From IMG/VR virus record IMGVR_UViG_3300013939_000002, positions 1-64,000 of that record: a stretch of 64,000 bases of DNA; one strand, given 5' to 3'. Made by a program: the position numbers and the translations under genes. The number at the start of each line of letters is the position of its first letter. Positions within the stretch are counted from its first letter, which is position 1. The notes beneath the pieces are model-generated. The model searched no databases, was not told where the DNA came from, and saw nothing but the letters and a program-made list of their open reading frames with translations. Of this stretch, positions 1,699-64,000 are shown piece after piece. This stretch comes from a virus.

Positions 1699-1943
1699 TG
1701 AGTCCAAGCACACGCAGATACAAAGAAGCTGTTAAAAGAGGGCAACAGGATGCTTATAGCGGAAAATATAATCCACCAGAACATTTTGATGAACGACAGC
1801 TGAGGTTGTATGACAAACACTATAATGAAACTAAGAATAAGTGTGAACAGATTGAATTAGATGCTGAATTTATGGCTAATGCTTATGGTTTCACTTATGT
1901 CCGAGATATTAATGGAAAATTTAAGTTGGAGAAATTAGATTGA
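1692..1943 (+). CDS. hypothetical protein
   Basis: Track ORF; start overlaps previous stop, stop overlaps ligase TTG start. Confidence 0.65.
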   Translation: MVMSPSTRRYKEAVKRGQQDAYSGKYNPPEHFDERQLRLYDKHYNETKNKCEQIELDAEFMANAYGFTYVRDINGKFKLEKLD

Positions 1944-5572: not shown

Positions 5573-6676
5573 TTGAGCTATCCATATATTGACAATATTA
5601 AAGAATTAATTCGTCCTGAAACAGTTGTTGTGTTTGATGCTGACCAAACCTGTTTTACAAGTGCTGCTTCATCAGAGAAACGTGAAATTCGTGTAATCTC
5701 GAAAGCATACGGAATTGATATGCGTTTTAAAACACGAACTGAGTTTTATGGGCGAAAAAAGAAAGAGTTAGGTGGTTGGTTATATGACCAGAATATAATG
5801 CGTGAAGTTCAAAAGAAACCTTTATTTAAAAAAGAAGATTTTGAAATAGTTGATGTCCAGATTCCAGACGACGAGAGTCATTGTTATTATGCAATCAAAT
5901 TGAAAATCAATTCTGTCTTAGACAACTTAGGTTTAACCAAATATGTTTGCTTGTTAGGTGGAAAAGGAAATTTCAGGTTAGATACACCTTTACCTCAGCA
6001 ATACAAAAGCAACCGAGATGGTTTGTTGCGACCAGTCTTATTGGACAAAGCAAGAGAATATGTAGCAAAACACCATAACGCTAAGATTATAGATTCATTT
6101 GAAGCTGATGACGTTTGTCGTGCTTATGCTGAGACTGGCTATCAACACTATTTAAAATATGGCTGGTTTAACTATATCATAGTGAGTTTCGATAAAGATC
6201 AGCGCGGGTTCAGCGGGCTGATTATTGACCCTTTGAGTCGAGATGGTAAATTAGTTCACGAAAAACCTATGTTGATTGACGAAGGTGTTGGTGAAATCTG
6301 GTTAGAAAAATCCAATGTTAAAGGTTATGGTTTTAAGTGGTTGTGCCTACAGTGTGTTACAGGAGATTCAACTGACGGTATATTACCTTACCAACCTTTC
6401 GGAATTACATTTGGTGCAAGTAGTGCATACAAACTGTTAGGAACATGCACAACAAAAGCAGAATGTTTAGAGAAAGTAGCACAACAATATGTAGATTGGT
6501 TTCCAGATGGTGTTGAATTTACTGATTTTACAGGAAAAGAACAGAAATTCAGTGCAGGCCAATGGCTTGAAATTATTTTCAGTTTAGTTTACATGAAAAA
6601 ATCACGAGATGATAAAACAACATTCTTTTCTTTAATGAAAGAACACAATGCAAAACTTCCCAAGAAAAAGGAATAA
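5573..6676 (+). CDS. flap endonuclease / 5'-3' exonuclease (T5 D15 / RNase H-like)
   Basis: TTG start after GAGGAGGA; FEN motifs QQYKSNR, FEADDV, SFDKDQ, GDSTDGILPY. Confidence 0.85.
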   Translation: MSYPYIDNIKELIRPETVVVFDADQTCFTSAASSEKREIRVISKAYGIDMRFKTRTEFYGRKKKELGGWLYDQNIMREVQKKPLFKKEDFEIVDVQIPDDESHCYYAIKLKINSVLDNLGLTKYVCLLGGKGNFRLDTPLPQQYKSNRDGLLRPVLLDKAREYVAKHHNAKIIDSFEADDVCRAYAETGYQHYLKYGWFNYIIVSFDKDQRGFSGLIIDPLSRDGKLVHEKPMLIDEGVGEIWLEKSNVKGYGFKWLCLQCVTGDSTDGILPYQPFGITFGASSAYKLLGTCTTKAECLEKVAQQYVDWFPDGVEFTDFTGKEQKFSAGQWLEIIFSLVYMKKSRDDKTTFFSLMKEHNAKLPKKKE

Positions 6677-6864: not shown

Positions 6865-7044
6865 ATGAATGAATCAAACATGACAGACTTGAACATTAAA
6901 GAAAAACTGGATATTCGTTTTGATTATAAGAAATTCAAAGCCAAACGTTTGAAGCGTTTTGATGGGCAACCTTTATCAGAAGAATTGCTGCAAGAGTTGC
7001 AAGACGTTCTTTCCAATGCTGTTGTTTATGGAATTAAGAAGTAA
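6865..7044 (+). CDS. small hypothetical protein (59 aa)
   Basis: ATG 6865 after AAGAGGAATAAATT; TAA 7042-7044 overlaps next ATG; just below track cutoff. Confidence 0.5.
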   Translation: MNESNMTDLNIKEKLDIRFDYKKFKAKRLKRFDGQPLSEELLQELQDVLSNAVVYGIKK

Positions 7045-7238
7045 TGAAACTAGAGATCAGAAAAGCTAAACAAGATAGTTTTTGTAGGTGCTGTGATGAA
7101 CCCTTGCGTAAAGGTGTTGATAATCTTGTTTATATGTTCAGTTATAGGAACCGAGGACAAAATATTTTATTGTGTTTTGACTGTATTGATTTAATCACTG
7201 AGAAAGTAAGTGAATACAAAGCAAACGAGGAAATTTGA
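7044..7238 (+). CDS. zinc-ribbon protein
   Basis: Track ORF; CRCC ... CFDC cysteine pairs. Confidence 0.6.
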   Translation: MKLEIRKAKQDSFCRCCDEPLRKGVDNLVYMFSYRNRGQNILLCFDCIDLITEKVSEYKANEEI

Positions 7239-7816
7239 ATAAAAATAATCAAGAGGTAATACGTGTAATTTCATGTGACCAGTCAACAAGTCATTGTGCA
7301 GTTGTATTTTGGGAAAACGGAAAGCCAATCAAAAAACAAATTATTAGGACTGGTTCAACACACTCTAAAACAAAATATAAAGGGGTTAATTATTTTCCTA
7401 TTATTACACAGCAGATTGATTTTGTTTGTGACACTCTATGCGAGTATGTTGAGGAGTTTCAACCCAACTATTTTGTTCTTGAAAGCCCTGCTATGAGCGC
7501 ATTCGGTGACGCTAAAGCAACACTATTGACATTGTTCCGCGCAATTAATGAAACTCTAGTTGAAAAAACATATTTGACAAAAGAACAGATCTCAAGTTAT
7601 ACTCCAACAAGTGTCAAAGCTTTTGCTCGTGAATATCTTCCTGAGGAAGAAAGATTTGTTAATAACAAGAAGAGGAAAATGGAAAAAGGGGACATGATTA
7701 GAGCCTGTAACTTAACAGAGACTGGTTTTCTTGATGGGTTAACATTAGCAGCAGGGAAGGCAGACTATGCAGATGCTTATTTTATAGGTCTTAAATTCAT
7801 CGCAGAAAATTGTTGA
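7235..7816 (+). CDS. RuvC-like Holliday junction resolvase
   Basis: VISCDQSTS (Asp), VLESPA (Glu), ADYADAYFIG acidic C-terminal motif; RNase H-fold pattern. Confidence 0.65.
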   Translation: MNKNNQEVIRVISCDQSTSHCAVVFWENGKPIKKQIIRTGSTHSKTKYKGVNYFPIITQQIDFVCDTLCEYVEEFQPNYFVLESPAMSAFGDAKATLLTLFRAINETLVEKTYLTKEQISSYTPTSVKAFAREYLPEEERFVNNKKRKMEKGDMIRACNLTETGFLDGLTLAAGKADYADAYFIGLKFIAENC

Positions 7817-15849: not shown

Positions 15850-15986
15850 GTTATAACCTATAACTAATAAAATAGTCAACAGTGGTGTTATTACACTATA
15901 AATAATTAGATGATGATAACAGACAATGTAATAATTAAGAACACCACGAAAATACACTCAATAATTCTTGAAATGGAGTAACTGTT

Positions 15987-16538
15987 ATGGCTTCAGCCAA
16001 TACTAAGAGAGATAAAAGCAAAGATTATTCAGATTTATACTCAACGCCAGAAATTGCATTAGATAAATTATTTGAAATTATTGAGTTTGGTAAATGTAGA
16101 CAATATTTTGAACCTTGTGCGGGGATTGGCATTGTTAGTGAATATCTACGAAAGAAAGGGTTGTATGTTGTAACAAATGAACTATTTGATCATGGATATA
16201 AAACAGAATACAACGAAGATTTCCTGAATACAGATATCAAATTCAATTATGACATAATTATTTCAAACCCACCTTATAAATTGGCAAATGAGTTTGTAAA
16301 TAAAGGCTTCGAGTGCGCTGAAGAGCAATACCTACTATTACGCCTGCAATTCCTTGAAAGCAAGAAACGATATGAGCAACTATTCAGTAAAGGTCATTTG
16401 AAAAATGTCTATGTGTTTGTAAGTCGAATTAGTTGTACTGAGGGTGTTGAACAGAAAGATACTGCCAACAGTGTTACTTATTGTTGGTGTCATTTCGATA
16501 GGAATTATATTGGTCAACCGACACTTCACTGGATTTAA
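15987..16538 (+). CDS. DNA N6-adenine methyltransferase (orphan)
   Basis: Motif I FEPCAGIGIV and motif IV IISNPPY; no adjacent restriction gene. Confidence 0.75.
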   Translation: MASANTKRDKSKDYSDLYSTPEIALDKLFEIIEFGKCRQYFEPCAGIGIVSEYLRKKGLYVVTNELFDHGYKTEYNEDFLNTDIKFNYDIIISNPPYKLANEFVNKGFECAEEQYLLLRLQFLESKKRYEQLFSKGHLKNVYVFVSRISCTEGVEQKDTANSVTYCWCHFDRNYIGQPTLHWI

Positions 16539-20474: not shown

Positions 20475-22837
20475 GTGAGTATTAGTGTAATTAATAAACA
20501 CGGAAATATTAATGGTTGGAGTGACCAGAAAATTTATAATGCTGTAAATAAAGCAGCAGAACGAGTCAACAAGCGACTATCAGAAACAGAGTTACAAACT
20601 TTACGCGAATCAGTTAAATCTAAAGTTTCATCAGAGATTCATGTTTCTAATCTGCACAACATTGTTTCTCAGACATTAATTCAATTGGGATACAAAGATA
20701 TTGCTGAATCTTACATGGCTTATCGAAACTATAAAACTAATTTTGTTAAGTTGTTAGACGATTTATATCAGAAGGCACACACACAGCAATTACACACGGG
20801 GATAAAGAGAATGCTAATTTTGAGTCATCTCTTATCTCAACAAAACAAGCATTGATTCGGGGATATTTAACCAAAGAACTTTATAAACTTCACTATTTAA
20901 CAAAAGAAGAACGGGAAGCTATTGAAACTGGTTTCATATATTTTCACGATTTGCGCGACCTAATTTTTAACGGTTTTAACTGCTGCCTTTTGATATGGGT
21001 AATGTTTTGAATGGTGGTTTTGAGATGGCTAATCTCAAATATTCAGAACCCTCTAATGTTTTAAGTTGTTTGCAAGTTATTGGAGATGTAACTTTATCAG
21101 CTTCAGCACAATCTTTTGGTGGGTTCACAATCCCAGATATTGATAAAATTCTAGTTCCTTATATTAAGAAATCCATTGTTCGTTATGGGAAAGAAGCTGT
21201 TGATTTCGGAATTGATAATCCATATAAGTATGCGTTATACAAAACAAACAATGACCTAGAACAAGGCTTCCAAAGTCTTGAAATGAAGTTGAACAGTGTA
21301 ACAAGTAGTCGTGGCGACTATAGTTTTGTAACGTTAACTTTTGGTAATCTTGATGTCCCTGATGATCGTCAATATCAGGTCATGGCTTGTAAAGCAATCT
21401 TGAAAAATCGCAAACGTGATAACCCTGTTGTTTTTCCAAAACTGGTGCATTTGTTTAGTTGGGAACAATACGAAAATGTTCCAGAAGCAGCAGAATTATT
21501 TGATTTATGTATTGACTGTTCTTGTAAAGCATTGTATCCAGACTATTTAGCAATTGATACAGTAGGGAAAGTTGCAGAAGCATATAAAAAGAGCAAAAAA
21601 GTAATAAGTCCGATGGGCGAACTATAATACAAAGTCGCGTGATTACCCATCTAAAACCTATCTAAAACGGGAACCTCTCTGAAATGAGACAATCCGTTGC
21701 TAAATGGATAAAATCCTAAATGCCCAACGACTAACCGTGATGAGTGTAGCGGTGTAGGACAGAAGCTAATGCTGTTCCAAATGGTAGGCCATAACAATAA
21801 AAGTTATGGAAGATATAGTCTGATCTGCATGGTGACATGCAGCAGTTCATTAGAGAACGGGAGAGGCCTTGCGAACCTCTCTGAACAAAATGTGTCGCGC
21901 ATTCCTGTCTGAATTTTCAGATGAAAACGGAGAAATATTCTTTACAGGTAGAGCAAACATAGGCGCTGCTTCTTTGAATCTTCCTATGATTTATATGAAA
22001 GCCTTAGAAGAAAACCTTGATTTTTATGAAACATTGGATTATTATTTAAACCTGATTCGGGAGTTTTTGAAGAAACGTTATGTTGCGGTTGCAAACAACA
22101 AAGCCAGCACCAATCCTTTGTGTTTCACACAAGGTGGTCTTGCAGGTGGAAACCTAAAACCAGACGAAAAGATTGGTGATATTGTTAAAAGTTTTACAGC
22201 TTCTTTTGGTATCACTGCTTTAAACGAACTGAATTATCTGCACGAGCAGAAACAGTTGCACGAATCAGATAAACGTTTTGTTAATGAAGTTATTGATTTC
22301 ATTTCTGAACGTGTAGAGACTTTCAAGAAAGAAGATGGACATCTTTATGCATTGTATGGAGTTCCTGCTGAATCGCTTGCTGGAACACAGCGCGAACAGT
22401 TTGTAGCTAAGTATGGCATTATTAAAGGTGTTTCAGATAAAGCATACTTTAGCAACAGTTTTCACTGTCATGTAACAGCAGAGATTTCACCATTTGAGAA
22501 ACAAGACCAAGAATATGAATTGTTCCATAAAATTAACGGTGGGCATATTCAATATACACGAGTAGATACAACAAAACCAAATGTCGTTAAGGGAATTGTT
22601 CTTCGTGGCATGAGTATGGGATTCTATTCTGGAATCAATGCCAATAAATGTTTCTGTGAAGATTGTGGTTGGTCGCCAGAAAAGGATATTGAAGTTGATA
22701 AATGTGAAAACTGTGGTAGTCTAAATATTCTTGAAATTAACCGAGTTTCAGGCTATCTTGGTTATTCAAAACAAAAACAAAACACACGTTTCAATGATGC
22801 TAAAATGGCAGAATTGAAAGATCGTATTAGTATGTAA
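20475..22837 (+). pseudogene. nrdD: anaerobic ribonucleotide reductase NrdD: three frames in exon 1 (two apparent frameshifts) plus a group I intron
   Basis: ATP-cone (20475-), DKENAN...FIYFHDLRD...NCCL in a second frame, MGNVLNGGFE...ISPMG in a third (to 21618), exon 2 CRAFLSEF... to the C-terminal CxxC...CxxC and RVSGYLG glycyl-radical region. Confidence 0.85.
21619..21892 (+). ncRNA. group I (T4 td/nrdD-like, IA2-type) self-splicing intron, no internal ORF
   Basis: Splits ISPMG|CRAFL; contains CTATCTAAAACGGGAACCTCTCTGAAATGAGACAATCCGTTGCTAAAT and ATATAGTCTGA..ATGGTGACATGCAGC..CTGAACAAAATG, near-matches to the T4 td intron core; ends in G. Boundaries +/- a few nt. Confidence 0.85.
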
Positions 22838-42484: not shown

Positions 42485-42513
42485 AGAATAGCAACACTAC
42501 AAACAGATGTCAA
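42485..42513 (-). promoter_or_regulatory. sigma70-like promoter TTGACA-17-TATTCT
   Basis: Minus strand hexamers at 42513-08 and 42490-85. Confidence 0.5.
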
Positions 42514-42516
42514 GGG

Positions 42517-43569
42517 TTATTTATTCCAACATAAATCTTGAACTTCCATCAACACTTTAGCAGCTAGATTAACATCTACGCTTTTTGGCAGATGAGATTG
42601 TTTGTATAGAGTCTCACGGATTAATTTGTCCTTTTGTTCTGCAAAATCAAGGATGTCTTCATAAGACCATAGTCCGTTTCGGATATCCAGCAACTCCTGA
42701 GCATCAGGTCGTTTAACATTAACAACCCCATCTCGGAGGATTTCTTCTCCCATCCGGCACAAACGAACCACGTGCATTGCGTGTTTTGTATCAAACCCGT
42801 ACTTCTCTTCTAGTTCACTTCTTGTTTCGTTTCGGTTTGTTTTCCAAGTCCAATAGTTTTTGTGTGTTTCCTTGGCTACTTTATATTCTTCTTCACATAA
42901 CTTTACAATCATCAACGGATTTTGTTTCTTTTGGTCATCTGTGAAAGATTCATAATCAAACTTCTTAATTGAACCATCAGCATTGCAAGTATTACTTCCT
43001 TTGGAATAAATTAATCCAAAAATATCATTTCCATAAGGAATCAAAAGATAATCTTTGTTATAGTAACGTAAGTTAAAATCTTTTGCTCTGATATTCTCCG
43101 GCATAAAATTATACTGAAGCTTAACAAAATCAACACGAACAGGAGATTGCTCTGGTTGAGGATTATTGATCCACTTGTTGTGTCCTTTAATTCGCTTCAT
43201 TTGTTGCAAAGCATAGCCTGTAAAAGTAAAAGCTACTTTCTTTGATAACAATTTAGGTGCATAATAATGCAATGCTTTATAGGCTTCAGTTGTTTCTAAG
43301 ATGTCTTGATTGTCTACCCACAACAATTCTAAAATGTTAGGGTTCATATCACAATACAATTTCATAAAGTTTGTTAACTCATACATCTTACCGTCTTCTT
43401 GATCTTCCAGATTAACTTCTCGTACTGGAAAGAATGGTGTACGAATATTACGTTCTTCTGTACAGAAAATACCACGCACATCAACGTCACTCAAGGGCGT
43501 GTTTGTACCATAGGCATGAGATCCACCTAAACAAACAACAATCTTATTGTCAATATCTTTCATTTCCAT
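42517..43569 (-). CDS. Pol-beta-fold nucleotidyltransferase (RlaP / RNA-repair-associated type)
   Basis: CLGGSHAYGTNTPLSDVDVRGIF fits GSxxYG..SDxDxxG of the RlaP-type NTase family; start overlaps the stop of the CCA enzyme gene. Confidence 0.65.
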   Translation of the reverse strand: MEMKDIDNKIVVCLGGSHAYGTNTPLSDVDVRGIFCTEERNIRTPFFPVREVNLEDQEDGKMYELTNFMKLYCDMNPNILELLWVDNQDILETTEAYKALHYYAPKLLSKKVAFTFTGYALQQMKRIKGHNKWINNPQPEQSPVRVDFVKLQYNFMPENIRAKDFNLRYYNKDYLLIPYGNDIFGLIYSKGSNTCNADGSIKKFDYESFTDDQKKQNPLMIVKLCEEEYKVAKETHKNYWTWKTNRNETRSELEEKYGFDTKHAMHVVRLCRMGEEILRDGVVNVKRPDAQELLDIRNGLWSYEDILDFAEQKDKLIRETLYKQSHLPKSVDVNLAAKVLMEVQDLCWNK

Positions 43570-44777
43570 TTATTCTTTACTCCTCTGATTGCATCAATTT
43601 TGGCAACACGGATTGCTTCACCAATATCTTTTCCTGATTTTCCTTTAGCTAACATAGTAGCAGAAATAATCTTTGTGTCAACAGACTTAACAGCATCTAA
43701 GCACTCAATTAGAAACTGTTTTTGTGTATAAGGAATTTCTGAGAGATAATCACCACGCCCTTTTGCATCTGATTCACAAACATCTAAGAATTTGTAAAAT
43801 CTATCTGTTTTTGTTTCAGCTTTAACATTTTCAAATAATTTATAAATTGATTTTGGTTTCATGTTAAAAGCCATATGAACATGGGTATGGTACTTACAAC
43901 AAATCAAACCTAACTCTTTGAATTTATTTGGAATCTTGAAAGTCTTGCAGAAATCTTCTACAAACTTGACACCTTCTTCTTCGTGTCCGTGCAGATTTTT
44001 AAAATTATTGTAACAATATGCTTTCCCAAAATCATGAACTAAAGCACCAAAGACAACTCCAACATCCCTATAGGCATTTGCAGCATGGTCAACACACATC
44101 ATAATATGAGTCCAAACACAACCTTCTGGATGATGTTGGATTGGTTGTGGAATATTAAATTGGCTGTCTAATGTTTCAAAAATACCAAACTGTTTTAGAA
44201 ATTCAAAATAATTTGAAGGTTTGTTTTCAGATAATCCTTTTTCTGTTTCTAACCAGATCCTTTCTTTAGGTAGATATTGAATCTCATCTTTAACTTTGTG
44301 GCATAAATCTACCAATTCTTCGGATGCCTTGAAATCTGGATACCTAGCTAAAAATCTTGCTGCCCTTAACACACGCAAAGGGTCTTCACAAAAAGAATTT
44401 GTTGTAGGTCTTAGTGTTTTATTTTTAATATCATCGGCACCGTTAAAAGGATCAACAATTTCGTCTGTTTCTAAACACATGGCTATTGCATTGATTGTTA
44501 AATCTCTTCGTGCTAAATCTTCTTCTAATGTGACATCTTTCCCGAAATAACAATCGAAACCTTGGTATCCAACGCCACTTTTCTTTTCAGTCCTAGCCAA
44601 AGCATATTCTTCTTTTGATTCTGGATGCAAAAAGACTGGAAAACTGGAACCTACTTGTTTAAAACCAAGAGCAATCATATCTTGTGGTTCAGCACCTACA
44701 ACAACATAATCTCGGTCTTTTGGTTCTTTGTTCATCAGTTTATCTCGAACAGCACCACCTACTAAATAAACTTTCAA
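43560..44777 (-). CDS. cca: tRNA nucleotidyltransferase (CCA-adding enzyme) with HD domain
   Basis: MKVYLVGGAVRDKL..DRDYVVVG..FPVFLHP..EEYALARTEKKSG..RRDLTINA near-collinear with E. coli Cca; HD motif ALVHDFGK. Confidence 0.95.
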   Translation of the reverse strand: MKVYLVGGAVRDKLMNKEPKDRDYVVVGAEPQDMIALGFKQVGSSFPVFLHPESKEEYALARTEKKSGVGYQGFDCYFGKDVTLEEDLARRDLTINAIAMCLETDEIVDPFNGADDIKNKTLRPTTNSFCEDPLRVLRAARFLARYPDFKASEELVDLCHKVKDEIQYLPKERIWLETEKGLSENKPSNYFEFLKQFGIFETLDSQFNIPQPIQHHPEGCVWTHIMMCVDHAANAYRDVGVVFGALVHDFGKAYCYNNFKNLHGHEEEGVKFVEDFCKTFKIPNKFKELGLICCKYHTHVHMAFNMKPKSIYKLFENVKAETKTDRFYKFLDVCESDAKGRGDYLSEIPYTQKQFLIECLDAVKSVDTKIISATMLAKGKSGKDIGEAIRVAKIDAIRGVKNKWK

Positions 44778-44786
44778 AATATTCTC

Positions 44787-46052
44787 CTAATATTTAATAT
44801 CAACCTTGCAGTTCACATCAGTCCCTAACCGCTCTCTAAAGGCAAAGTGCATTGTTTGTTTCAATTCTTCTTGATAATCAACAGGAATAATAAAACTATC
44901 ATGAATGCTTATGCAGGCAACCGATCTTTGTGTAAAATAGTTCAGAACAGAATCAGCAATAGCACTATCGACTCCTTGCAAGCGCAAACCAACAACAGCT
45001 TCTGAAATAAAAGTTTCATACAGATACGGATTCTTGTCAATAATTGCATATAACAATTCATCAACTTCAATATAAATTTTAGGAATTTTGTTTTCTTGGT
45101 ACAACTGTTTAATATCTAAATTGTTTCCAATCCAGTGATTCATAGCAAGTTTGTATGAGGAATCACTATTGCAGTTTAGTCGAATCAACATTGCCATCTT
45201 AGCCAGTTTCCGAAGTGTCTTAGGTTCATACCCTTTCATTTCAATATCATAAGGATCAAAACCTTCTGGAAAAATATAACCTGCTTCAGTAGCTAGGATC
45301 GTTGGGTGCAATGCAACAAAATCTAACTCTGTGACCTTTGAACCATTGATTGTTAATTTGGATCGTTCTTCAGAAGATAATGACTGCACAACAGCCTTGT
45401 CGTTATAGAATCGACCACCTTTATCAAAGCTATCATTGAAGATTCGGCGAGCATTAACAAACAGTTTCTCACCTTTTTCATTTCGGATATCAAAATCAGC
45501 TAGTGTTTTATTGTACATTCGTAAACCCTTAAGCATTTGTTGTGTGGTAGCAGTTGATGTAAACGTCTTAGGTTTCTTGTTTTCATCACGCAAAATCAAA
45601 ACATTCTCGATTGTTGGAATCTCTGCATCTTGCAATAATGTGAATAGATTCTCATAAATATAATCAGATAACACCAGAACAGATTGTTTGAACTTTGTTT
45701 CACCATATTCATTATACCCACAAAATCCACCAACATCAACAATACATCCACATTCTTCCAGAACTTTTAGGAATAGTTTAAAACTCTGATAGTCAATTGG
45801 TGTTGATTTGGACTTCTGTCCATTAATAACAAAACGTTCACTGAATCTTGTTTTGTCAAGTATGATGGGTAGTTCACGGCAACCTAACAGTATTGGTTTT
45901 GTTAGATTATAAATCAGACAATTGCATACTTGTTTTATTTGTTTAATTTTTAAATCATTAAGTTTAGTTGTATTGTAAGTATTGAATAATTGTAATAACC
46001 ACTCTGCTGCTGGTTTACTATGTTTACTAATTGTTTTAGCTAATAAGAACAT
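44787..46052 (-). CDS. 421-aa protein with Pol I / T7-RNAP-type polymerase palm motifs (function unknown)
   Basis: DKGGRFY (aa 210-216), ELDFVALHPTILA (D244), RKLAK (281-285), ISIHDSF (382-388) in canonical T/DxxGR-A-B-C order. Confidence 0.5.
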   Translation of the reverse strand: MFLLAKTISKHSKPAAEWLLQLFNTYNTTKLNDLKIKQIKQVCNCLIYNLTKPILLGCRELPIILDKTRFSERFVINGQKSKSTPIDYQSFKLFLKVLEECGCIVDVGGFCGYNEYGETKFKQSVLVLSDYIYENLFTLLQDAEIPTIENVLILRDENKKPKTFTSTATTQQMLKGLRMYNKTLADFDIRNEKGEKLFVNARRIFNDSFDKGGRFYNDKAVVQSLSSEERSKLTINGSKVTELDFVALHPTILATEAGYIFPEGFDPYDIEMKGYEPKTLRKLAKMAMLIRLNCNSDSSYKLAMNHWIGNNLDIKQLYQENKIPKIYIEVDELLYAIIDKNPYLYETFISEAVVGLRLQGVDSAIADSVLNYFTQRSVACISIHDSFIIPVDYQEELKQTMHFAFRERLGTDVNCKVDIKY

Positions 46053-46240
46053 TGTACCTCATACTAAATAAATATTGTGTGTTACAGTAATACTAATATT
46101 AAATATAAATACTAAAAAAAAAACAAGATAAGAGACACTCTCCTACATGTTAAGGAGCATTTTGGTATGCTAACCCGCACGGCACTAGGCTTTGCGGCTG
46201 AAAAAGCGGCAATATTTTTGCTAAGTTTAACCAGTATACT

Positions 46241-49158: not shown

Positions 49159-49422
49159 TTATTTCAAAAACACAATGCATAACCAAACAACTGAGACCAA
49201 CCAAGCAGAATCTAAGATTTTTCCTGTTGAGTTTTGTTTATAGTCTACATTAGAATTAAAAACTTTCCAGACTAAGTATACCCCATATTTTAACCAGTTT
49301 GTCAGACCTGATGCAATTCCATAAATCAAAACATATAGGCCCATCAGAATTGTTAGGACATTTTGCTGCATTACAAACATATAAATATCATTCAGGTTTT
49401 GTATACTCTTCTCTCCTATCAT
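49159..49422 (-). CDS. membrane protein
   Basis: Track ORF; two or three hydrophobic segments. Confidence 0.6.
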   Translation of the reverse strand: MIGEKSIQNLNDIYMFVMQQNVLTILMGLYVLIYGIASGLTNWLKYGVYLVWKVFNSNVDYKQNSTGKILDSAWLVSVVWLCIVFLK

Positions 49423-50279
49423 TTCATAAATTTAACAATTTGTTCAAAAACATTCTTTGTTTGTTCTGAAGAGAGTTTAGCATCTTGAACAAACTTGTCA
49501 AGTGATTGTCGAATATTCTTTGTCACAACTAGAACATTTTTATTCGTAATTGGTGCATCTTTATTTAAAACATAAAGGCTGCGCTGACTGTCTTCATCAA
49601 ACTGAATGCCTGTCAAACTGCAACATTTCTTTGACATCAGACGTTTATATTCTGAGAACGAAAGTTCGAAACTATAGCCTTTTTCACAGAAGATGTTAGC
49701 AATATTAGCATATTTCACTGCAAAATCAACATCATTGTGTTTTGTTTTAGGTTCTAGTTTTTCAATTTGTTCTACAGATTCTGTTAATATTTCTGTTTCA
49801 TTCTTTGCAATCATCTCAGTTTCTCCTGTTGATTCTATTATGTTACTTTCTGATAAATTATTCAAAACATATTCTTTTAATTTGTTTGCTTCTTCAATTG
49901 CTTCAGTGTTATCCAATAACACCTCTGCTGCAACCTTGAAGGTTTCCAGTTTATCTAACTCAATAGTTGTTGTCTTGCAAAGTTTATTTTCCAGTGTGCC
50001 TTTAATGTAATTAACAGTGGCTCCAACCCACACCACATTCCCTAAGACATAAGGTAAAGAACTGTCAATGCGCTCCAGTGTAGGGTACATATCTGACTTT
50101 GGGTCACTGAAATCAAACTCTTTTCCGGTGTAAGCACAACACGGTTTGTTTTTCATATAAGACATAATCAGTCTATATTGACTTTTTGTTATATCGCAAA
50201 CAATTCCTCTACGTTTAGCATTGGTTTTCTTGCGATCATACATTTTGTTAATATGATGCAGACTGAAATACTGTTCCAT
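49419..50279 (-). CDS. protein with two tandem degenerate HNH/His-Me-finger-like modules
   Basis: AKRRGIVCDITKSQYRLIMSY..CCAYTGKEF..LERIDSSLPYVLGNVVWV..VNYIKG repeated more weakly as FELSFSEYKRLMSKKCCSLTGIQF..VLNKDAPITNKNVLVV. Confidence 0.55.
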   Translation of the reverse strand: MEQYFSLHHINKMYDRKKTNAKRRGIVCDITKSQYRLIMSYMKNKPCCAYTGKEFDFSDPKSDMYPTLERIDSSLPYVLGNVVWVGATVNYIKGTLENKLCKTTTIELDKLETFKVAAEVLLDNTEAIEEANKLKEYVLNNLSESNIIESTGETEMIAKNETEILTESVEQIEKLEPKTKHNDVDFAVKYANIANIFCEKGYSFELSFSEYKRLMSKKCCSLTGIQFDEDSQRSLYVLNKDAPITNKNVLVVTKNIRQSLDKFVQDAKLSSEQTKNVFEQIVKFMK

Positions 50280-52450: not shown

Positions 52451-53539
52451 TTAGTAAGGGATATTATCTCCATCATTATCCTTTCCAAAACCTTCACTGC
52501 TCTTCAACATCTTGACCAAATCTTTGAGATGTGGATCATAGTTCTGAGGAAACAACATCATATGAAGAATAGCTAATGGGCCTTCCATCCTGTTAAAGCT
52601 TGAGAACAAATCATGTTGATTAAATTTCATATTACTTAAGATATTCAGCTTAGAATCAAATGTCAAGAGTCGAATATCCTGCATCTTATCTGCTGCTGAA
52701 GCTTTAGACTTGTCAAATTCAAATGTATAACTTTGTTGTTTAAACTCTTGAAACTTAACGTCATCTGGATCATCTTTCAAACAAGAAACAAGATATTCAT
52801 AAGGAACGCTTGTTGTCATTTCTAATTCTTGTCGCTTTGGAGCATCATCAAAATTCAAAACAGGATCTGTTTCCATTGCTTTAGAAACTAATTCTAATGC
52901 TTTATCAGAATCAAAAGCTTCGTTCTCAGGCCACAACATAATTTCTAACAATGCAGTTAATGAGTACATCCCACCAAGATGTTTGATAAATTCTTCCTTG
53001 GTGCTTAAATCTAACTTAGCAACTGTGAAACCAAGTTTTCGCATTTCACCTGTTGAAATTTTATAACCACGAGACAAATATTTATTGATACGCAACAAGC
53101 TCACCAAAGGAAATGCTGTCTTTGGATTAAAACTTAGTCGCTTTAGTGCCAAATCTTTAAAGAAGTCTTCACCAAAAACAAACTCTTCTGTCTCAAAGAC
53201 ATAACAACCTGTATTAATACTAAAATCAAAACTGTCAAAGATCTGTTGTGGATTATCAAAATAATCAAAATAAATGCACTGGATTGTTCGATAACTATAA
53301 CGACTCGTATTAATTGTCAGTGTAGCTGCTTTGTCCGTACAGCTTACAATAAACGGACTATTATCATCAATAAACTGTGCCAATGTTTTTGCTGAATCAA
53401 AATATAAATCTAAATCATTGATTGCTTGCCCAGAGAAAATAGATGTAATTGCTCCACCAGCAAGATAAACTCCTGATTTTGGCATCTCGATGTCATTAAA
53501 ACAATTCTTAATTGCTTGTTTGTAGTAATCTAAATTCAT
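52451..53539 (-). CDS. class II (CCA/poly(A) polymerase-type) nucleotidyltransferase head-domain protein, no HD domain
   Basis: ATG 53539 after CAAGGAAATAAA; LAGGAITSIFSGQAINDLDLYF (GG..DxD) and FDFSINTG (cf. RDxTIN of CCA enzymes). Confidence 0.55.
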   Translation of the reverse strand: MNLDYYKQAIKNCFNDIEMPKSGVYLAGGAITSIFSGQAINDLDLYFDSAKTLAQFIDDNSPFIVSCTDKAATLTINTSRYSYRTIQCIYFDYFDNPQQIFDSFDFSINTGCYVFETEEFVFGEDFFKDLALKRLSFNPKTAFPLVSLLRINKYLSRGYKISTGEMRKLGFTVAKLDLSTKEEFIKHLGGMYSLTALLEIMLWPENEAFDSDKALELVSKAMETDPVLNFDDAPKRQELEMTTSVPYEYLVSCLKDDPDDVKFQEFKQQSYTFEFDKSKASAADKMQDIRLLTFDSKLNILSNMKFNQHDLFSSFNRMEGPLAILHMMLFPQNYDPHLKDLVKMLKSSEGFGKDNDGDNIPY

Positions 53540-53555
53540 TTTATTTCCTTGTGTT

Positions 53556-53966
53556 TTAAAAGTTAGGTTTATTATCAACCATCAAGTACAATCTGTCAAG
53601 CAACTCTTCTTCAGAAATTTTAGAATCAAGACAATCTTTCATCAAATAATAAATTGTCCATACAAAATCTGGAACCTGTGAGTTTAACATCTTTAGTAGA
53701 GTTTTATCTTCTATTGATAAATCTTTAGGATTCAAGACATTATCTGAATCAATTTTTATATTACGTTCAATTATACCACAATGATCAAAATCATAGCAAC
53801 TTCTCAAATGTGAAGCCTCTATACAGCCTTCCACACCAACACCATAACAATCTAGCTTATAAGATAAAGTTAGAATTTCGGTTCCGGATTGACAAAACTT
53901 TGTGATTAAAGCAAAAGTAATATCACGGTGCTCAAATGGATTAATAGTATCTAAGATCGATGCCAC
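53556..53966 (-). CDS. hypothetical protein
   Basis: Track ORF. Confidence 0.6.
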   Translation of the reverse strand: MASILDTINPFEHRDITFALITKFCQSGTEILTLSYKLDCYGVGVEGCIEASHLRSCYDFDHCGIIERNIKIDSDNVLNPKDLSIEDKTLLKMLNSQVPDFVWTIYYLMKDCLDSKISEEELLDRLYLMVDNKPNF

Positions 53967-54328
53967 TTCTTTCTATCCTCTTTGCCATAAGCATAAATCT
54001 TATTGCATAACTGTTTCTTATAAGTCTTAAACAAACTGTCAATTTCAGAATCAGAGAATCCATAGACCATTTGCAAGTATGCGCGATCTTCATCACAGAC
54101 ACCTTTAATGTTGAAACGTGTCAAACTGTTCTTTAGTGTATCCACCCTGTGCTGATATTCTTCCCTAATCTCAGTGGCATCTAACCACCACACACCTCTG
54201 TATTCGGGAAGTCTTATCGGTAATCCACACTTAATAACAAAAGCCTCTCCCACTAAAATGTCATACCCTTCCTTTCTATATTCATCTGACATAGAAGATT
54301 CCTTATTCTGCATATCGATCATATTCAA
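53951..54328 (-). CDS. hypothetical protein
   Basis: Track ORF. Confidence 0.6.
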   Translation of the reverse strand: MNMIDMQNKESSMSDEYRKEGYDILVGEAFVIKCGLPIRLPEYRGVWWLDATEIREEYQHRVDTLKNSLTRFNIKGVCDEDRAYLQMVYGFSDSEIDSLFKTYKKQLCNKIYAYGKEDRKKWHRS

Positions 54329-55784
54329 TATATTTAAAACTTAAATCACCAAAAACATGTTCCATATTTCTTTCTGTTGAGACAATAATAACTTGTTTTT
54401 CAAATTGTTTCCATTGTTCTTTATTCAAATTAAAATAACAGTCTGTAAAGATAACAATACGATCTGACTTCTTTAACTTCTGTGATTTCAGGAAAGGCAA
54501 CAAACAATCTGGTGCTGTGCCACCACCCCCAACGAACTCATAATCCGATGATTCACGTTTGTTTTTCTTTGTATAAACTCGCAAACTATCCTGATAGAAT
54601 TGTGTATCCCAACAGCCTACTGTTAATTCAAAAGATTTATACATATCCATAATGCCTAACGTTTCAGATAACATCATGGTTCGTTCTCGGTTTCCAATGC
54701 TTCCAGACATATCATAAAACACAAATGCACGTGCCATAGGTTCAGGTTTCTTTCCTGCTTTATACAAGCCAAGACGACTATCTAACATATTATTCTGGTG
54801 CATAAAGTTTGTTAATCCATGAATATTTCGGCACAGTTTCTTTGGATCTTTCTCTGATTTAACCAACCCTGTTAACGTTTTGCGCAAGATTCGTTTCCAA
54901 TTAATAACTGGTTTTTGTGCCTTGAGTTTTTCTAACAACGAACCACCACAACCTTTTCCGATTTCTTTTGCTGTCTTAACAAAAGCATCACGAAGTCGGC
55001 TGTTGTTTAATTCTACACTGCTATCAGGATTAGAACCATTAGCACTATCTTTTGACTCTTCTGAACCTTCCATTGGTTTATCTGGCAAACCAAGAACATC
55101 ACGAATATAACGTTCTAAATCAGAAGGTTTGTTTGAACCTCCCATATTTCCATCAGAACCGTACATATGGTCATCTAATGGTTGCCCTTCTTTGCCTTTA
55201 TTCTGTTGCTGTTGTTGCAACAAATCTTCATAGATTTTCTCTGAGAACCAACTTTCAGGGACATACTTTTCATCAAAACATAATAGTTTAAAAACAGGTT
55301 CGGCTTTCATAGCTGCTGCATAACTTCCATAAATTAATTTGGCTGCATCAGCATTGATTCGATAATCTGCTGCTTGGTTGAATAGTTGTTTATCTCGTGT
55401 TCCAACACGAACAAAATGATCATGCAAACAATGCCCAATCTCATGCACAAAGCCAAACTGCAAGAAAGATTGTGATTTCTTGCTATACATTAACTTAAAC
55501 TTATCTTCTGATTCTTGATTCCAGAAAGGGCTTTGACGCGACTCAAGAACCAACTTATCTAATTGCTTTTGTTCTAAACCCAAGACAAACAACGGATTAA
55601 AATACAGATAAGAGCCATCTGTTGCAAAGGTTGGAAGATAATCTACGGCTTTGAGTTGCAAGTTTGTAGAAACAATCCCATAAAGTTTAATATCTTCTTT
55701 CTTGTGATTAACCATTCCCAAACGTGTTCCACGCAACAAGACCGTTGCATCATCAATCTGTTTTTCTGTGATTTCAATTTTCAT
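54303..55784 (-). CDS. metallopeptidase-like domain fused to a VWA domain (DUF2201-type MoxR partner)
   Basis: HEIGHCLHDH zinc motif in the N-terminal half; MIDAS-like VFYDMSGSIG in the C-terminal half. Confidence 0.8.
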   Translation of the reverse strand: MKIEITEKQIDDATVLLRGTRLGMVNHKKEDIKLYGIVSTNLQLKAVDYLPTFATDGSYLYFNPLFVLGLEQKQLDKLVLESRQSPFWNQESEDKFKLMYSKKSQSFLQFGFVHEIGHCLHDHFVRVGTRDKQLFNQAADYRINADAAKLIYGSYAAAMKAEPVFKLLCFDEKYVPESWFSEKIYEDLLQQQQQNKGKEGQPLDDHMYGSDGNMGGSNKPSDLERYIRDVLGLPDKPMEGSEESKDSANGSNPDSSVELNNSRLRDAFVKTAKEIGKGCGGSLLEKLKAQKPVINWKRILRKTLTGLVKSEKDPKKLCRNIHGLTNFMHQNNMLDSRLGLYKAGKKPEPMARAFVFYDMSGSIGNRERTMMLSETLGIMDMYKSFELTVGCWDTQFYQDSLRVYTKKNKRESSDYEFVGGGGTAPDCLLPFLKSQKLKKSDRIVIFTDCYFNLNKEQWKQFEKQVIIVSTERNMEHVFGDLSFKYIEYDRYAE

Positions 55785-56164
55785 AACAAATCCTCAATAT
55801 TCTCTAAAACTAACTGCTCTAATTCTGATGTAGCAATTTGATTTGTATGTAGTTTATACAATCCTATAATAAATTTCAAGTATTTCTGAGGAATATTATT
55901 GACCATGAAAGTAAGTTCCCATTCTTGGTCTTGTATTACATTCTTGTCAACAAACATCACTTTCGGAAATATTAAACTAATACTGTGATCCTGCCCACCA
56001 TCATATTCAGAAAAACACCAAAACCATACCTTTGCTATGTCATTTGTAAGTCTAATTTCTATAAAATTTTCTATCTGGCAGTACTCCACGTCTCTTATTT
56101 TTATACAAGCTTTACCAGATGAGTAATTAATGGTATTAACAATATATCTTCCATTGCTTTTCAT
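55781..56164 (-). CDS. hypothetical protein (paralog of the next gene?)
   Basis: ATG 56164 after TTGGAGAATAAA; C-terminus resembles that of 56166..56564. Confidence 0.6.
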   Translation of the reverse strand: MKSNGRYIVNTINYSSGKACIKIRDVEYCQIENFIEIRLTNDIAKVWFWCFSEYDGGQDHSISLIFPKVMFVDKNVIQDQEWELTFMVNNIPQKYLKFIIGLYKLHTNQIATSELEQLVLENIEDLL

Positions 56165-56165
56165 T

Positions 56166-56564
56166 TTATTCTCCAAGAATCTTATCGACAATCTTAAACA
56201 ATTCTTCTTTTGTTATAACACCTTTACAACTTAGATACAAATTATAATAAATCTCTAGGTCTCGCATAGAACAATTCCAGTTTTCTGTCATGTGACAACA
56301 TACGAGATCTTGAAAAGTGATTACTGCTTCTGTAGATCGGGTACTTACGGAGTAGTTACCTGAATGAAAAACATAATCCTCGGAAAAACCTCTTGAACAG
56401 AATTTCAAAGGTTCCTCTAACACGCTACCTCCATCTACCAACTCAAACTCTATACCTTCATTATCTGCATTATTATATTTTATTTCTATCCTATAAATTC
56501 CCATTCCAGAATCGCAGCCGTACTCTTCCGGCTCATACTTATAAACCTTATAACTTCTGCTCAT
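56166..56564 (-). CDS. hypothetical protein
   Basis: ATG 56564 after TTGGAGAACAAG; in frame with the track ORF. Confidence 0.6.
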   Translation of the reverse strand: MSRSYKVYKYEPEEYGCDSGMGIYRIEIKYNNADNEGIEFELVDGGSVLEEPLKFCSRGFSEDYVFHSGNYSVSTRSTEAVITFQDLVCCHMTENWNCSMRDLEIYYNLYLSCKGVITKEELFKIVDKILGE

Positions 56565-56652
56565 CTTGTTCTCCAAATAATAAAAGGCTACCATTCCTGA
56601 TAGCCTTAAGTTTAGTATCTCTTTAATTGAGTGTCAACAGCTATTTTGTAGT

Positions 56653-57825
56653 TTATGCTGCTTGTTTCATCAAATCTTCAAACTGTTTGTTGAACTGTGT
56701 ATACTTAACCAAAATATTTGTGAAAGTTGGGCAACCTTGGCGGATTTGCATCAAGAAACTATCATTGTTTGTTTCTTTGCCCAGATTGGAAAGTTTTCCA
56801 ACCATACTAACCATAATCTCTTGTTCTTCAATCAAATTGTTTGACAAGAAATTAACAAAGTTGACACCTTGTTTAACTGCTTTATCTTTATCAGATGTCA
56901 ATGTTTGTCGCAAATGATACAGACAACTATTGAGAACACTATAAATCCCTGCTAAACCAACAGTTTTAACATCAATCTTTCCGTTAAACATTCCTTCCAG
57001 AATCACATCAGCTCGTGGAAGTTTAATACTGCTTTCATATTTAGGCCAAACTTTCAAGAACTTGTTATCACCAATAACACCGTTAATCCCCACTTCCATA
57101 ATTTTTTGTGAGATATGCCCTGCTTGATAAGCATAACAAATATCGCTGGCTTTCTTCATAGAACGACCTGATGCAAAACTTGGGCAATCTGTTTTAGAAC
57201 CATACTCATAAAGTTCATCAGGAAAATCGTAAACATATTCATAAATAGCTGGATGAATATTAACAAGACTTGCATAATCTTCCCGCCAATGATCTGCTAA
57301 TGGTTCCAATTCACAAATAATCAGACGGTTTGCTAATGGCCCTAGAAGTTCTGTTGATTCTCCTGCATCATGAATCCGGTTTCCTGCAAGAACAACTTGC
57401 ATTTTAGGAGGCAAAGCGTAATTGCCCACTTTGTGTTCATGCGTAATCTGATATAACAAGTGTTGCATATCCGTATCAACAATGTTAGTAACTTCATCCA
57501 AGAACAAGATGCCTTCCCACTTTGGATCAAGAGGAATCAATGTAGGTCGGGAATGTCGCATAACAACATCATCACCAACCAATGTTGGGACACCTTGACC
57601 AACCAAATCTGTTACAGAATAGTGGCTTAGGATAAGTGTACAAATATTCCCGTTATATTCTTTTTGAGCAAATTGGTTTGTAATTTCTGTCTTGCCACAA
57701 CCCGCTGGACTAAGAATACATACAGTACTTTTAATCTCTTTCCCCATTTTCAACACATCAAACATATCTCGTGTATTGATTCGAGTTTCAAACAACCAGT
57801 TTGTCTTTTTAGAATTGTTGCTCAT
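56653..57825 (-). CDS. MoxR/CbbQ-type AAA+ ATPase
   Basis: Walker A SPAGCGKTE, Walker B ILFLDEV, sensor region LAGNRIHD. Confidence 0.85.
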   Translation of the reverse strand: MSNNSKKTNWLFETRINTRDMFDVLKMGKEIKSTVCILSPAGCGKTEITNQFAQKEYNGNICTLILSHYSVTDLVGQGVPTLVGDDVVMRHSRPTLIPLDPKWEGILFLDEVTNIVDTDMQHLLYQITHEHKVGNYALPPKMQVVLAGNRIHDAGESTELLGPLANRLIICELEPLADHWREDYASLVNIHPAIYEYVYDFPDELYEYGSKTDCPSFASGRSMKKASDICYAYQAGHISQKIMEVGINGVIGDNKFLKVWPKYESSIKLPRADVILEGMFNGKIDVKTVGLAGIYSVLNSCLYHLRQTLTSDKDKAVKQGVNFVNFLSNNLIEEQEIMVSMVGKLSNLGKETNNDSFLMQIRQGCPTFTNILVKYTQFNKQFEDLMKQAA

Positions 57826-63289: not shown

Positions 63290-64000
63290 ATGAGTAAAGA
63301 TTCAGGATCGATGATTGGTCACTATCATTGTATTGCAAATGAGGTTGAAGGAAAACGAGGGTGTGCAAGCGGAGACGCTTTAGCTGTATATGAGCATATT
63401 ACTGATTCAGGAGTTGAATATGACGGATACTGTTATTCATGCTGTCAGCACTTTACAGTATCACAAGTTCATAATTCATCAGTTGCTGTTAATTTGGGTA
63501 TCAAAGATGGAGTTGTTGTAGACAAGAAAAACTTCATTCGTAAACCAAAAGCCGAACCAATTACACTTGAAGAAGCAAAGAACTTTATTAAAAAAATTGG
63601 TTATTTTTCCAACGGTTATCGTGGAATTAAGGATGAATACAATAAGTTCTTTGGTCATTTGACTAAAGTCGATTCTAATGGTGTAGTGATCGCACAATAT
63701 TATCCAGAAACACAAGACGGAAAGATCGTAGGTTACAAATGTCGTAATCATCCCAAAGATTTCCGTTATGGTAAACTCGGTCAAACAGGCATAATGTCAG
63801 ATTTAAGTGGTGAAGTTAAATTTAAATCTGGCGGTAAATACGTTTTAATTGTTGGTGGTGAATGTTATTCCGAAGACACCGAAGTTTTAACAGTAAATGG
63901 TTGGAAGTTTTTCAAAGACTTATCATCAGATGACCTTGTTATGCAGGTGAATAACGGAATTGGTCAGATGGTGAAACCTTTAAGTTATATTAAAAAAGAA
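63290..64000 (+). CDS. T7 gp4-like DNA primase(-helicase), 5' part, interrupted by an intein; runs off the window
   Basis: ATG 63290 after AAGAGGATTAA; frame open to the window end (not in track); Zn finger HYHC..C....CYSCC, YRGIKDEY, Toprim YVLIVGGE. Confidence 0.8.
   Translation, partial: MSKDSGSMIGHYHCIANEVEGKRGCASGDALAVYEHITDSGVEYDGYCYSCCQHFTVSQVHNSSVAVNLGIKDGVVVDKKNFIRKPKAEPITLEEAKNFIKKIGYFSNGYRGIKDEYNKFFGHLTKVDSNGVVIAQYYPETQDGKIVGYKCRNHPKDFRYGKLGQTGIMSDLSGEVKFKSGGKYVLIVGGECYSEDTEVLTVNGWKFFKDLSSDDLVMQVNNGIGQMVKPLSYIKKE
63863..64000 (+). mobile_element. intein N-terminus inserted after the primase Toprim glutamate (partial)
   Basis: LIVGGE|CYSEDTEVLTVNGWKFFKDL matches the intein block A pattern C-x-x-x-D/T-x-V-L-T..G. 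Confidence 0.7.

Follow-up and report, generated by a model that had tools for sequence, protein, structure and literature searches.

Do genes that are packed as tightly as those of an operon also act in one pathway? This question is raised by a locus on the minus strand of IMG/VR virus record IMGVR_UViG_3300013939_000002, at positions 42517-46052 of a stretch of 64,000 nucleotides (nt) comprising positions 1 to 64,000 of that record (hereafter the window, whose numbering is used throughout), in which a gene for a protein with polymerase motifs, here called ORF3, is followed by genes for a CCA-adding enzyme (Cca) and a nucleotidyltransferase (NTase) of the RlaP type. An original prediction made from the sequence had interpreted the three genes as a single module that rebuilds the 3' ends of tRNAs or other RNAs damaged by host nucleases. 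Our analysis favors, with a probability of roughly 0.55, a composite locus in which an independent polymerase of the divPolA2 family is co-transcribed with a two-gene, ligase-independent Cca-RlaP cassette for tRNA 3'-end repair. Cca and RlaP probably form a mobile pair that maintains host tRNA 3' ends during infection, the substrates being ones that we infer.

Identity of the Cca and NTase genes

The second gene of the locus (43560-44777, minus strand, 405 amino acids (aa), TTG start) is, as judged from its sequence, a gene for a full-length class II CCA-adding enzyme of the Escherichia coli type with a C-terminal HD domain. Pfam searches detected the PolyA_pol head domain (PF01743, 77 bits), the PolyA_pol_RNAbd domain (PF12627, 28 bits) and the HD domain (PF01966, 29.9 bits against a cutoff of 22), and the protein retains all motifs of the head domain (GGAVRD at residues 7-12, DRD at 21-23, RRD at 90-92 and EDPLR at 131-135) along with those of the HD domain (HHPEG at 215-219 and VHDFGK at 247-252). 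The NCBIfam model NF008137, 'multifunctional CCA addition/repair protein', aligns collinearly over the full length (residues 1-402 against 1-405 of 409) with a score of 439.3 bits, just below the equivalog cutoff of 451, whereas the next-best NCBIfam model, PcnB poly(A) polymerase, reaches only 89.8 bits; matches to phrog_2244 and to CCA-adding enzymes in the PDB agree with this assignment. The E. coli-type enzyme rebuilds the CCA end and serves as the repair enzyme for ordinary CCA-end turnover, and its HD domain has 2',3'-cyclic phosphodiesterase/phosphatase activity. The protein of the window differs from this type in being encoded by a phage, in its score just short of the equivalog cutoff and in that no phage tRNA genes were detected nearby.

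The third gene (42517-43569, minus strand, 350 aa) is predicted to encode an NTase of the PF10127/RlaP family with a Pol-beta-type catalytic domain. The Pfam match (57 bits against a cutoff of 23) spans residues 12-127, that is, the N-terminal half only, and the C-terminal ~220 residues are specific to the viral subfamily; phrog_388, by contrast, is matched over the full length. The catalytic motif G16-S17...D28-x-D30 (GGSHAYG...SDVD) is intact and its four defining residues are invariant in 24 homologues, and PF10127 was found in 120 of 120 homologues among the matches listed, of 2,195. RlaP owes its name to an association with RNA ligases, whereas the NTase of the window adjoins Cca and has no RNA ligase neighbor. 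A sequence search of the PDB with the NTase found nothing, and its AlphaFold2 (AF2) model (mean predicted local distance difference test score, pLDDT, 89.3) produced no more than weak matches, all to Pol-beta NTases of a generic kind, ANT(4') and Hailong HalB among them, in a structure set that contained no RlaP structure. The record of phage KLEP7 labels the homologous gene nrdC.11 and, because NrdC.11 of phage T4 is itself a member of PF10127 (PMC12776372), we read the NTase as an NrdC.11-like viral RlaP. Both enzyme assignments of the original prediction, a full-length Cca with an HD domain and a GSxxYG..SDxDxxG NTase of the kind associated with RNA repair, were thereby borne out. The characterized RlaP of Pseudomonas adds one or two nucleoside monophosphates (NMPs) of any base to RNA 3'-OH ends, does not use 3'-phosphate ends or DNA, and prefers mimics of damaged tRNA (PMC12776372); RlaP and CCA-adding enzymes have already been regarded as RNA-end restoration enzymes of phages (PMC7824862).

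Recurrence of the Cca-RlaP pair

In a search of phage genomes seeded with the fused ORF3, Cca and NTase sequences, Cca and the NTase were found joined, on the same strand and in the same order, in about 9 of 60 evenly sampled records. Among IMG/VR loci, an RlaP-type NTase is encoded 0.4-2.6 kilobases (kb) downstream of cca in 18 of the 55 Cca loci, and cca lies upstream of the NTase gene in 14 of the 80 NTase loci at E <= 1e-5 (15 at 1e-4). The latter set is dominated by one apparent T4-like environmental lineage (59 of the 80 loci), in which the NTase gene directly follows those for a RecA/UvsX-like ATPase and a gp32-like single-stranded DNA-binding protein, with no cca; these loci often encode an intein-containing helicase downstream of the NTase. 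Outside this lineage, cca is found upstream in 14 of 21 NTase loci, and four of the remaining seven are too short on the upstream side to judge the linkage.

The arrangement takes several forms. The cca and NTase genes overlap in KLEP7 and in Vibrio phage 1.084.O, as they do in the window, and have the same orientation and order in Vibrio phage 496E54-1; in Barba19A (gp063-gp061) the order is Cca, hydrolase, RlaP, and in the Vequintavirinae, such as PVP-SE1 (gp159-gp166), Cca and RlaP are separated by six small genes, one of which encodes the same hydrolase. The blocks of Barba19A and of the Vequintavirinae (rV5-like phages) thus share with the window the same two enzymes, strand and order, and their proteins share 47-56% identity with those of the window, whose genes, in contrast, overlap directly, without the hydrolase gene and the genes for small membrane proteins. 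The hydrolases of Barba19A and PVP-SE1 are homologous to each other and weakly similar to peptidyl-tRNA hydrolase 2 (PTH2 or Pth2), and in KLEP7 a Pth2-domain gene lies just upstream of cca. The respective small hydrolase genes between or beside cca and rlaP are located at 15862-16281 in the Barba19A locus (L012), 5697-6185 in the Vequintavirinae locus (L004) and 7002-7283 in the KLEP7 locus (L002). No homologue of the Pth2-like hydrolase or of the KLEP7 metallophosphoesterase was found in the window. The cca gene of KLEP7 is annotated as two coding sequences (L002 8001-9245) and yields one continuous tblastn match to the Cca of the window, so that the split may be due to an interruption that keeps the frame, or else to an artifact of annotation or sequencing. 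KLEP7 provides the best phage match for both Cca and the NTase, which suggests that the two genes arrived together. Comparison of these sequences indicates that, in several phage lineages, Cca is repeatedly followed by RlaP on one strand, and that the pair described here adds a further case to this phage arrangement, whose components are known RNA-repair enzymes.

The polymerase gene is not linked to the pair elsewhere

Of the three-gene module that had been proposed, then, the Cca-RlaP part is co-conserved in several lineages, and the polymerase part is not: it adjoins neither of the other two genes in any other locus compared. All three genes were found in one place in none of 675 phage records, and the polymerase was linked to the pair in none of the 80 NTase, 55 Cca and 50 divPolA2 loci, so that the comparison of gene neighborhoods contradicts the original prediction as far as the polymerase is concerned. 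The closest orthologue of ORF3, with 58% identity, is encoded by Aeromonas phage PhAER-3, which shares with the window, in collinear order, the genes for an ATPase, a DUF2201 protein, ORF3 and UvdE. Between ORF3 and UvdE everything differs: PhAER-3 carries prs and a gene for a protein of ~487 aa, called NAMPT-like here on account of its position and size, where the window carries Cca-RlaP. The ATPase (390 aa, phrog_1297) and the DUF2201_N metallopeptidase-like protein (493 aa) are encoded at 54303-57825 of the window (minus strand), and the two genes are kept together in PhAER-3. The position of divPolA2 upstream of Prs/NAMPT-type genes for nicotinamide adenine dinucleotide (NAD) salvage was observed both in PhAER-3 (L001 9277-11907) and in Barba19A (L012 1-2567 and 4271-5578), in the latter with an additional macro domain gene, and sequences downstream of divPolA2 might serve as a hot spot for cargo of an auxiliary or counter-defence nature. 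We conclude from these alignments that ORF3 is apparently a backbone gene of its phage lineage that stands beside the pair by genome layout.

ORF3 as a predicted member of the divPolA2 family

ORF3 (44787-46052, minus strand, 421 aa) produced no match in Pfam, NCBIfam, PADLOC or PDB sequences, and its only PHROG match is phrog_4756. Its AF2 model (pLDDT 87.8; predicted template modeling score, pTM, 0.81) nevertheless retrieved family-A DNA polymerases (Bst, Klenow, Taq and apicoplast Pol) in Foldseek searches with a probability of 1.00. The modeled protein consists of an N-terminal globular domain followed by palm and fingers and has no exonuclease domain, for which 421 aa leave no room; the N-terminal ~195 residues have no Pfam match. 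Following the established motifs of Klenow and T7, we assign motif A to E242-L-D244-F-V-A-L-H249-P, motif B to R281-x3-K285-x7-N293, a helix-Q-like segment to L358-Q-G-V-D362-S and motif C to H384-D385-S386. D244, R281, K285 and D385 are invariant across 38 members of the family. The protein with polymerase motifs is thus recognized as one with motifs A, B and C in a family-A fold, as had been anticipated, and can now be placed in a described family: it aligns with the divPolA2 protein gp041 of Barba19A over 411 aa, including the N-terminal domain, with 26% identity (E = 6e-35), finds homologues in 115 Rheinheimera phage records by tblastn, and matches a Barba31A protein in BFVD (E = 3.5e-29).

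Relationships to better-known polymerases are more distant. The family profile of ORF3 found nothing among PDB sequences, and the hhalign matches to T7 DNA polymerase (motif A, E = 0.24) and T7 RNA polymerase (RNAP; motif C, E = 0.1) were local and not significant, so that the likeness to DNA_pol_A or to T7-like RNAP exists at the level of fold and motifs only and does not extend to membership in either family profile. Ten longer family members with N-terminal extensions had no Pfam domains, and the names of all family members in the source records are 'hypothetical'. In T7-like RNAPs, a tyrosine of motif B (Y639) reads the ribose 2'-OH; its counterpart in ORF3 is presumably the invariant N293. 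ORF3 does not fit a T7-like single-subunit RNAP, either in this Asn or in its N-terminal domain, which is reported to be unrelated (PMC11348598), where such RNAPs have a promoter-binding domain.

Its sequence places ORF3 within the already described, uncharacterized orphan family divPolA2. This family was defined on barbavirus proteins in 'DNA polymerase swapping in Caudoviricetes bacteriophages', a 2024 study of the Koonin group in Virol J, as having an active PolA-like palm, no exonuclease domain and an N-terminal globular domain of unknown kind, with two or three paralogues per genome, a regular family-B DNA polymerase (PolB) encoded elsewhere in the genome, and a variable neighborhood as a stated hallmark; a function as a repair DNA polymerase or an RNAP was proposed (PMC11348598). 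No mention of divPolA2 was found in the literature that followed. ORF3 resembles these proteins in its size class, in the PolA-like palm and fingers with motifs A, B and C, in the lack of an exonuclease domain and in the presence of a regular PolB in the same phage. The variable neighborhood was likewise reproduced: none of the neighbor families around divPolA2 is common to more than 6 of 50 loci. What sets ORF3 apart is its likely translational coupling to cca, an arrangement seen in no other record. The PolB of this phage is encoded just past the window end at 64000, where a Toprim+DnaB primase-helicase gene is followed by a PolB gene (both within L200 11307-17375) that seems to be split by a GIY-YIG homing endonuclease into an exonuclease part of 376 aa and a second part of 328 aa that contains the motifs KLALNGTYG and NTDG, an assignment based on motif reading and a faint Pfam match. 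ORF3 has apparently intact catalytic residues and most likely has a role independent of its neighbors, either as an RNA polymerase or primase-like enzyme or as a specialized repair polymerase.

Gene junctions and expression signals

The ORF list of the window confirms the three minus-strand reading frames, and the junctions read from the sequence agree with the original prediction of tight linkage, with a gap of 9 nt at one and an overlap of 10 nt at the other. At the ORF3-Cca junction (44778-44790), the sequence ...AAATAT-TAG-GAGAATATT-TTG contains an intergenic gap of 9 nt (44778-44786), and the stop codon TAG of ORF3 forms part of an AGGAG Shine-Dalgarno sequence located 6 nt ahead of the TTG of cca. 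This TTG appears to be the right start because Cca then begins with MKVYLVGGAVRD and aligns from position 1 of NF008137. The Cca-NTase junction reads AATAAATGGAAATGAAAG; here, the first ATG of the NTase gene, at 43569, is preceded by GAGGAG 10 nt upstream, and the overlap ATGGAAATGA (43560-43569) amounts to 10 nt, or to the 4-nt ATGA if Met3 is the start.

For comparison, we used L003, a metagenomic relative with 91-94% identity in the three genes. All three reading frames are kept in L003 and both junctions are identical, and crude pN/pS values (the ratio of nonsynonymous to synonymous change) are 0.043 for ORF3, 0.098 for Cca and 0.031 for the NTase. Low ratios of this kind indicate strong purifying selection on all three genes and, together with the conserved frames and junctions, argue that these are expressed, constrained genes rather than chance ORFs. 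The packing makes translational coupling and co-transcription of the three genes likely, in line with the translationally coupled operon originally envisaged, and because the ORF3 stop is part of the ribosome-binding site of cca, we take ORF3 to be co-expressed with the pair in this phage.

Signals at the two ends of the locus are compatible with this picture. Upstream of ORF3 lies a conserved leader of 188 nt (46053-46240, minus strand), in which a hairpin identified by a terminator scan, CTCCTTAACATGTAGGAG (46157-46140), followed by a T-run, resembles a terminator for the upstream gene, and an AT-rich stretch leads to the Shine-Dalgarno sequence and ATG of ORF3. Its 3'-terminal ~130 nt, which run from the hairpin (46157) up to the ATG, differ from L003 at about 6 positions, compared with a synonymous divergence of 0.23-0.38, with greater divergence in the remainder of the leader; the leader is likely the start of the transcription unit. 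A sigma-70-like promoter, TTGACA-17-TATTCT with a TG (42485-42513, minus strand; 10 of 12 matches), begins 4 nt past the NTase stop, and its -35 and -10 elements (TTGACA-17-TATTnT) are kept in L003 amid diverged flanks. It might mark the start of the next unit, for which it is by itself weak evidence. The promoter scan as a whole showed no enrichment (49 found against 39.8 +/- 7.9 in shuffled sequences), and individual sites were used only if conserved in L003. The bracket of conserved leader and downstream promoter fits a single transcription unit, as weak evidence where the scans are taken alone. A megablast search of the locus against phages gave no match, and Rfam found nothing on it.

divPolA2 in bacterial genomes

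The divPolA2 family proved to be far larger than described: a profile search collected 10,506 clusters at 50% identity, and bacterial chromosomes, too, commonly carry members of it. In GTDB genomes (79 loci), it is found mostly in marine Alphaproteobacteria, with a tyrosine integrase gene within 5 kb in 40 of the 79 loci and a serine resolvase gene in 10. The study that defined the family covered phages only, and this bacterial distribution is not part of it (PMC11348598). Individual islands carry Lamassu-like or methyltransferase/helicase (MTase+ResIII) cargo. The distribution suggests that divPolA2 helps mobile elements to replicate or to be expressed, and argues further against a dedicated function in tRNA repair.

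A possible route of tRNA 3'-end repair and its alternatives

The most economical interpretation of the Cca-RlaP pair is repair of the 3' ends of RNA, in particular of tRNA, because RlaP adds one or two NMPs to 3'-OH ends of RNAs that mimic damaged tRNA (PMC12776372). Host tRNAs suggest themselves as the target because a search of the window and of the 10 kb on either side of it (~84 kb altogether) detected no tRNA genes; the related loci compared contain none either. In the route that we propose, with an order of steps and substrates that we infer, the HD domain of Cca would first remove 2',3'-cyclic or 3'-phosphates left by a nuclease, RlaP would then add one or two untemplated nucleotides to a 3'-OH that has been cut back past the CCA, for example at the discriminator position, and the head domain of Cca would finally rebuild the CCA so that the tRNA could be charged again. 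In the other phages, the Pth2-like hydrolase would beforehand strip this end of acyl or peptidyl groups. A counter-defence role of this kind, directed against a host defence that targets tRNA, is plausible. The general logic, healing and restoring tRNA after nuclease attack, would be that of T4 Pnk/Rnl1, bacterial Pnkp/Hen1 and RtcAB, which, however, reseal breaks in the anticodon loop with a ligase and a kinase-phosphatase, whereas the system of the window is proposed to act on 3' termini only and would need no ligase because the lesion lies at the terminus and not in the anticodon loop.

Consistent with the original prediction, neither an RNA ligase nor a polynucleotide kinase (PNK) is recognizable nearby. 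A Pfam scan of the 55 ORFs at 33.6-63.8 kb found no RNA ligase, RtcB, PNK or phosphoesterase, and the precomputed Pfam assignments of called genes in the two 10-kb flanks include no RNA ligase, RtcB or PNK; positions 1-32 kb were screened in part, through the PHROG top 25 of 44 families and Pfam searches with eight larger ORFs. The sole ligase seen in the window, a 715-aa protein encoded at 1940-4087 (plus strand), was considered as an RNA ligase and rejected, as it is an ATP-dependent DNA ligase (PF01068 and PF14743) into which an intein bearing a LAGLIDADG endonuclease domain is inserted.

Several observations weigh against the repair cassette. RlaP shows little base specificity, which would make the restoration of a specific discriminator base inefficient. 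Its activity is carried over by analogy from the Pseudomonas enzyme to the viral members, T4 NrdC.11 included, and the genomic association with RNA ligases that gave the family its name was not observed at 33.6-63.8 kb, in the flanks or in the part of 1-32 kb that was screened. The negative results on tRNA genes and ligases leave ~26-30 kb of the 110-kb genome outside. Linkage of Cca and RlaP within the Vequintavirinae is partly a matter of shared ancestry and not of independent events, and the NTase family evidently needs no Cca, given the 59 of 80 loci with UvsX-like and gp32-like genes and no cca. As for the independence of the polymerase, the tight coupling of ORF3 to cca, with the Shine-Dalgarno sequence in its stop and kept in L003, implies at least joint expression.

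Three other explanations were weighed. It is possible, and in our judgment rather unlikely, that the two enzymes counter no defence and do housekeeping work, with Cca boosting the capacity for turnover and maturation of tRNA 3' ends against host shut-off or exonuclease nibbling and the NTase tailing or marking other RNAs. Ordinary CCA-end turnover is, after all, what E. coli-type Cca itself serves, and no target in a defence system was identified here. Genes for Cca are also common in large phages, often alongside phage tRNA sets (PMC7824862), but the ~84 kb surveyed here contain no phage tRNA genes. The pair lies, furthermore, in a variable early region beside genes of the anti-defence type, such as a Gad2-like gene, in a slot that NAD-salvage genes fill in relatives, and the recurrence of a Pth2-like hydrolase gene beside the pair elsewhere speaks for a toolkit dedicated to the acceptor end.

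Less probable still is a function of the NTase that has nothing to do with Cca, be it in DNA recombination or replication or in nucleotide-based anti-defence, in which case adjacency would reflect inherited synteny and genome compaction. The 59 loci in which the NTase gene directly follows the UvsX/RecA-like and gp32-like genes would fit such a function, but they look like one lineage. The restriction of the Pfam RlaP match to the N-terminal half (12-127), the fold matches confined to generic Pol-beta NTases, and the anti-defence activity of other NTase-like phage proteins, such as Gad2, could be read in the same way. The characterized RlaP, however, does not use DNA (PMC12776372), and the link to Cca recurs with differing spacing and intervening genes and with NTases of both the window type and the Barba type, a pattern for which synteny alone is an unlikely cause.

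The single three-enzyme pathway, in which divPolA2 would extend a truncated acceptor stem by copying the 5' strand, RlaP would add the discriminator base and Cca the CCA, is very improbable: its three activities would be chemically complementary, the Shine-Dalgarno sequence inside the ORF3 stop and the 9-nt gap are kept in L003, the LQGxDS segment and motifs A, B and C (as we map them) fit primer-template-dependent synthesis, and His249 in place of the Glu steric gate of DNA Pol I could permit the use of ribonucleoside triphosphates, but against all this stand the complete lack of co-conservation (0/675, 0/80, 0/55 and 0/50), the many divPolA2 phages without cca (most of them, including ~110 barbaviruses), the PhAER-3 orthologue followed by prs and NAMPT-like genes, the bacterial homologues that adjoin integrases and not RNA-repair genes, and the Cca-RlaP phages that manage without divPolA2. 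If true, it would amount to a complete ligase-free rebuilding of the acceptor end by three polymerases and to the first function assigned to divPolA2.

If the repair cassette that we prefer is real, Cca-RlaP, joined elsewhere by the Pth2-like hydrolase, would represent a branch of phage RNA repair that needs no ligase, the viral RlaP/NrdC.11 proteins would gain a concrete partner and substrate, and hosts would be predicted to deploy nucleases or modifying toxins against tRNA 3' ends. The polymerase provides a cautionary result, namely, that genes may be packed as tightly as in an operon without sharing a pathway. The interest of the locus comes mainly from the idea of ligase-independent repair and from the wider distribution of divPolA2; the latter, a by-product of the analysis, may be worth more, inasmuch as this very large family also marks integrase-bearing islands in marine bacteria.

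Genomic setting

The minus-strand block near the locus contains many small ORFs and genes for Gad2-like, Srd-like/HNH and UvdE proteins, and has the look of an early host-interaction region. The Gad2-like gene (52451-53578, minus strand) encodes a 375-aa protein, a near-identical product of which on the source contig (362 aa, from a shorter start) carries the precomputed Pfam assignment 'Gad2' (anti-Gabija); our local Pfam search gave no match for the 375-aa protein, and PHROG gave only a weak NTase match. The 286-aa protein encoded at 49419-50279 (minus strand) matches PHROGs of HNH endonucleases, 'decoy of host sigma70' and Srd anti-sigma proteins. On the plus strand, a group I intron (RF00028, 70.6 bits) is located at 21601-21842 between two pieces of the gene for the anaerobic ribonucleotide reductase NrdD (20995-21627 and 21869-22837), and the PHROG matches to this enzyme fall on three separate ORFs.

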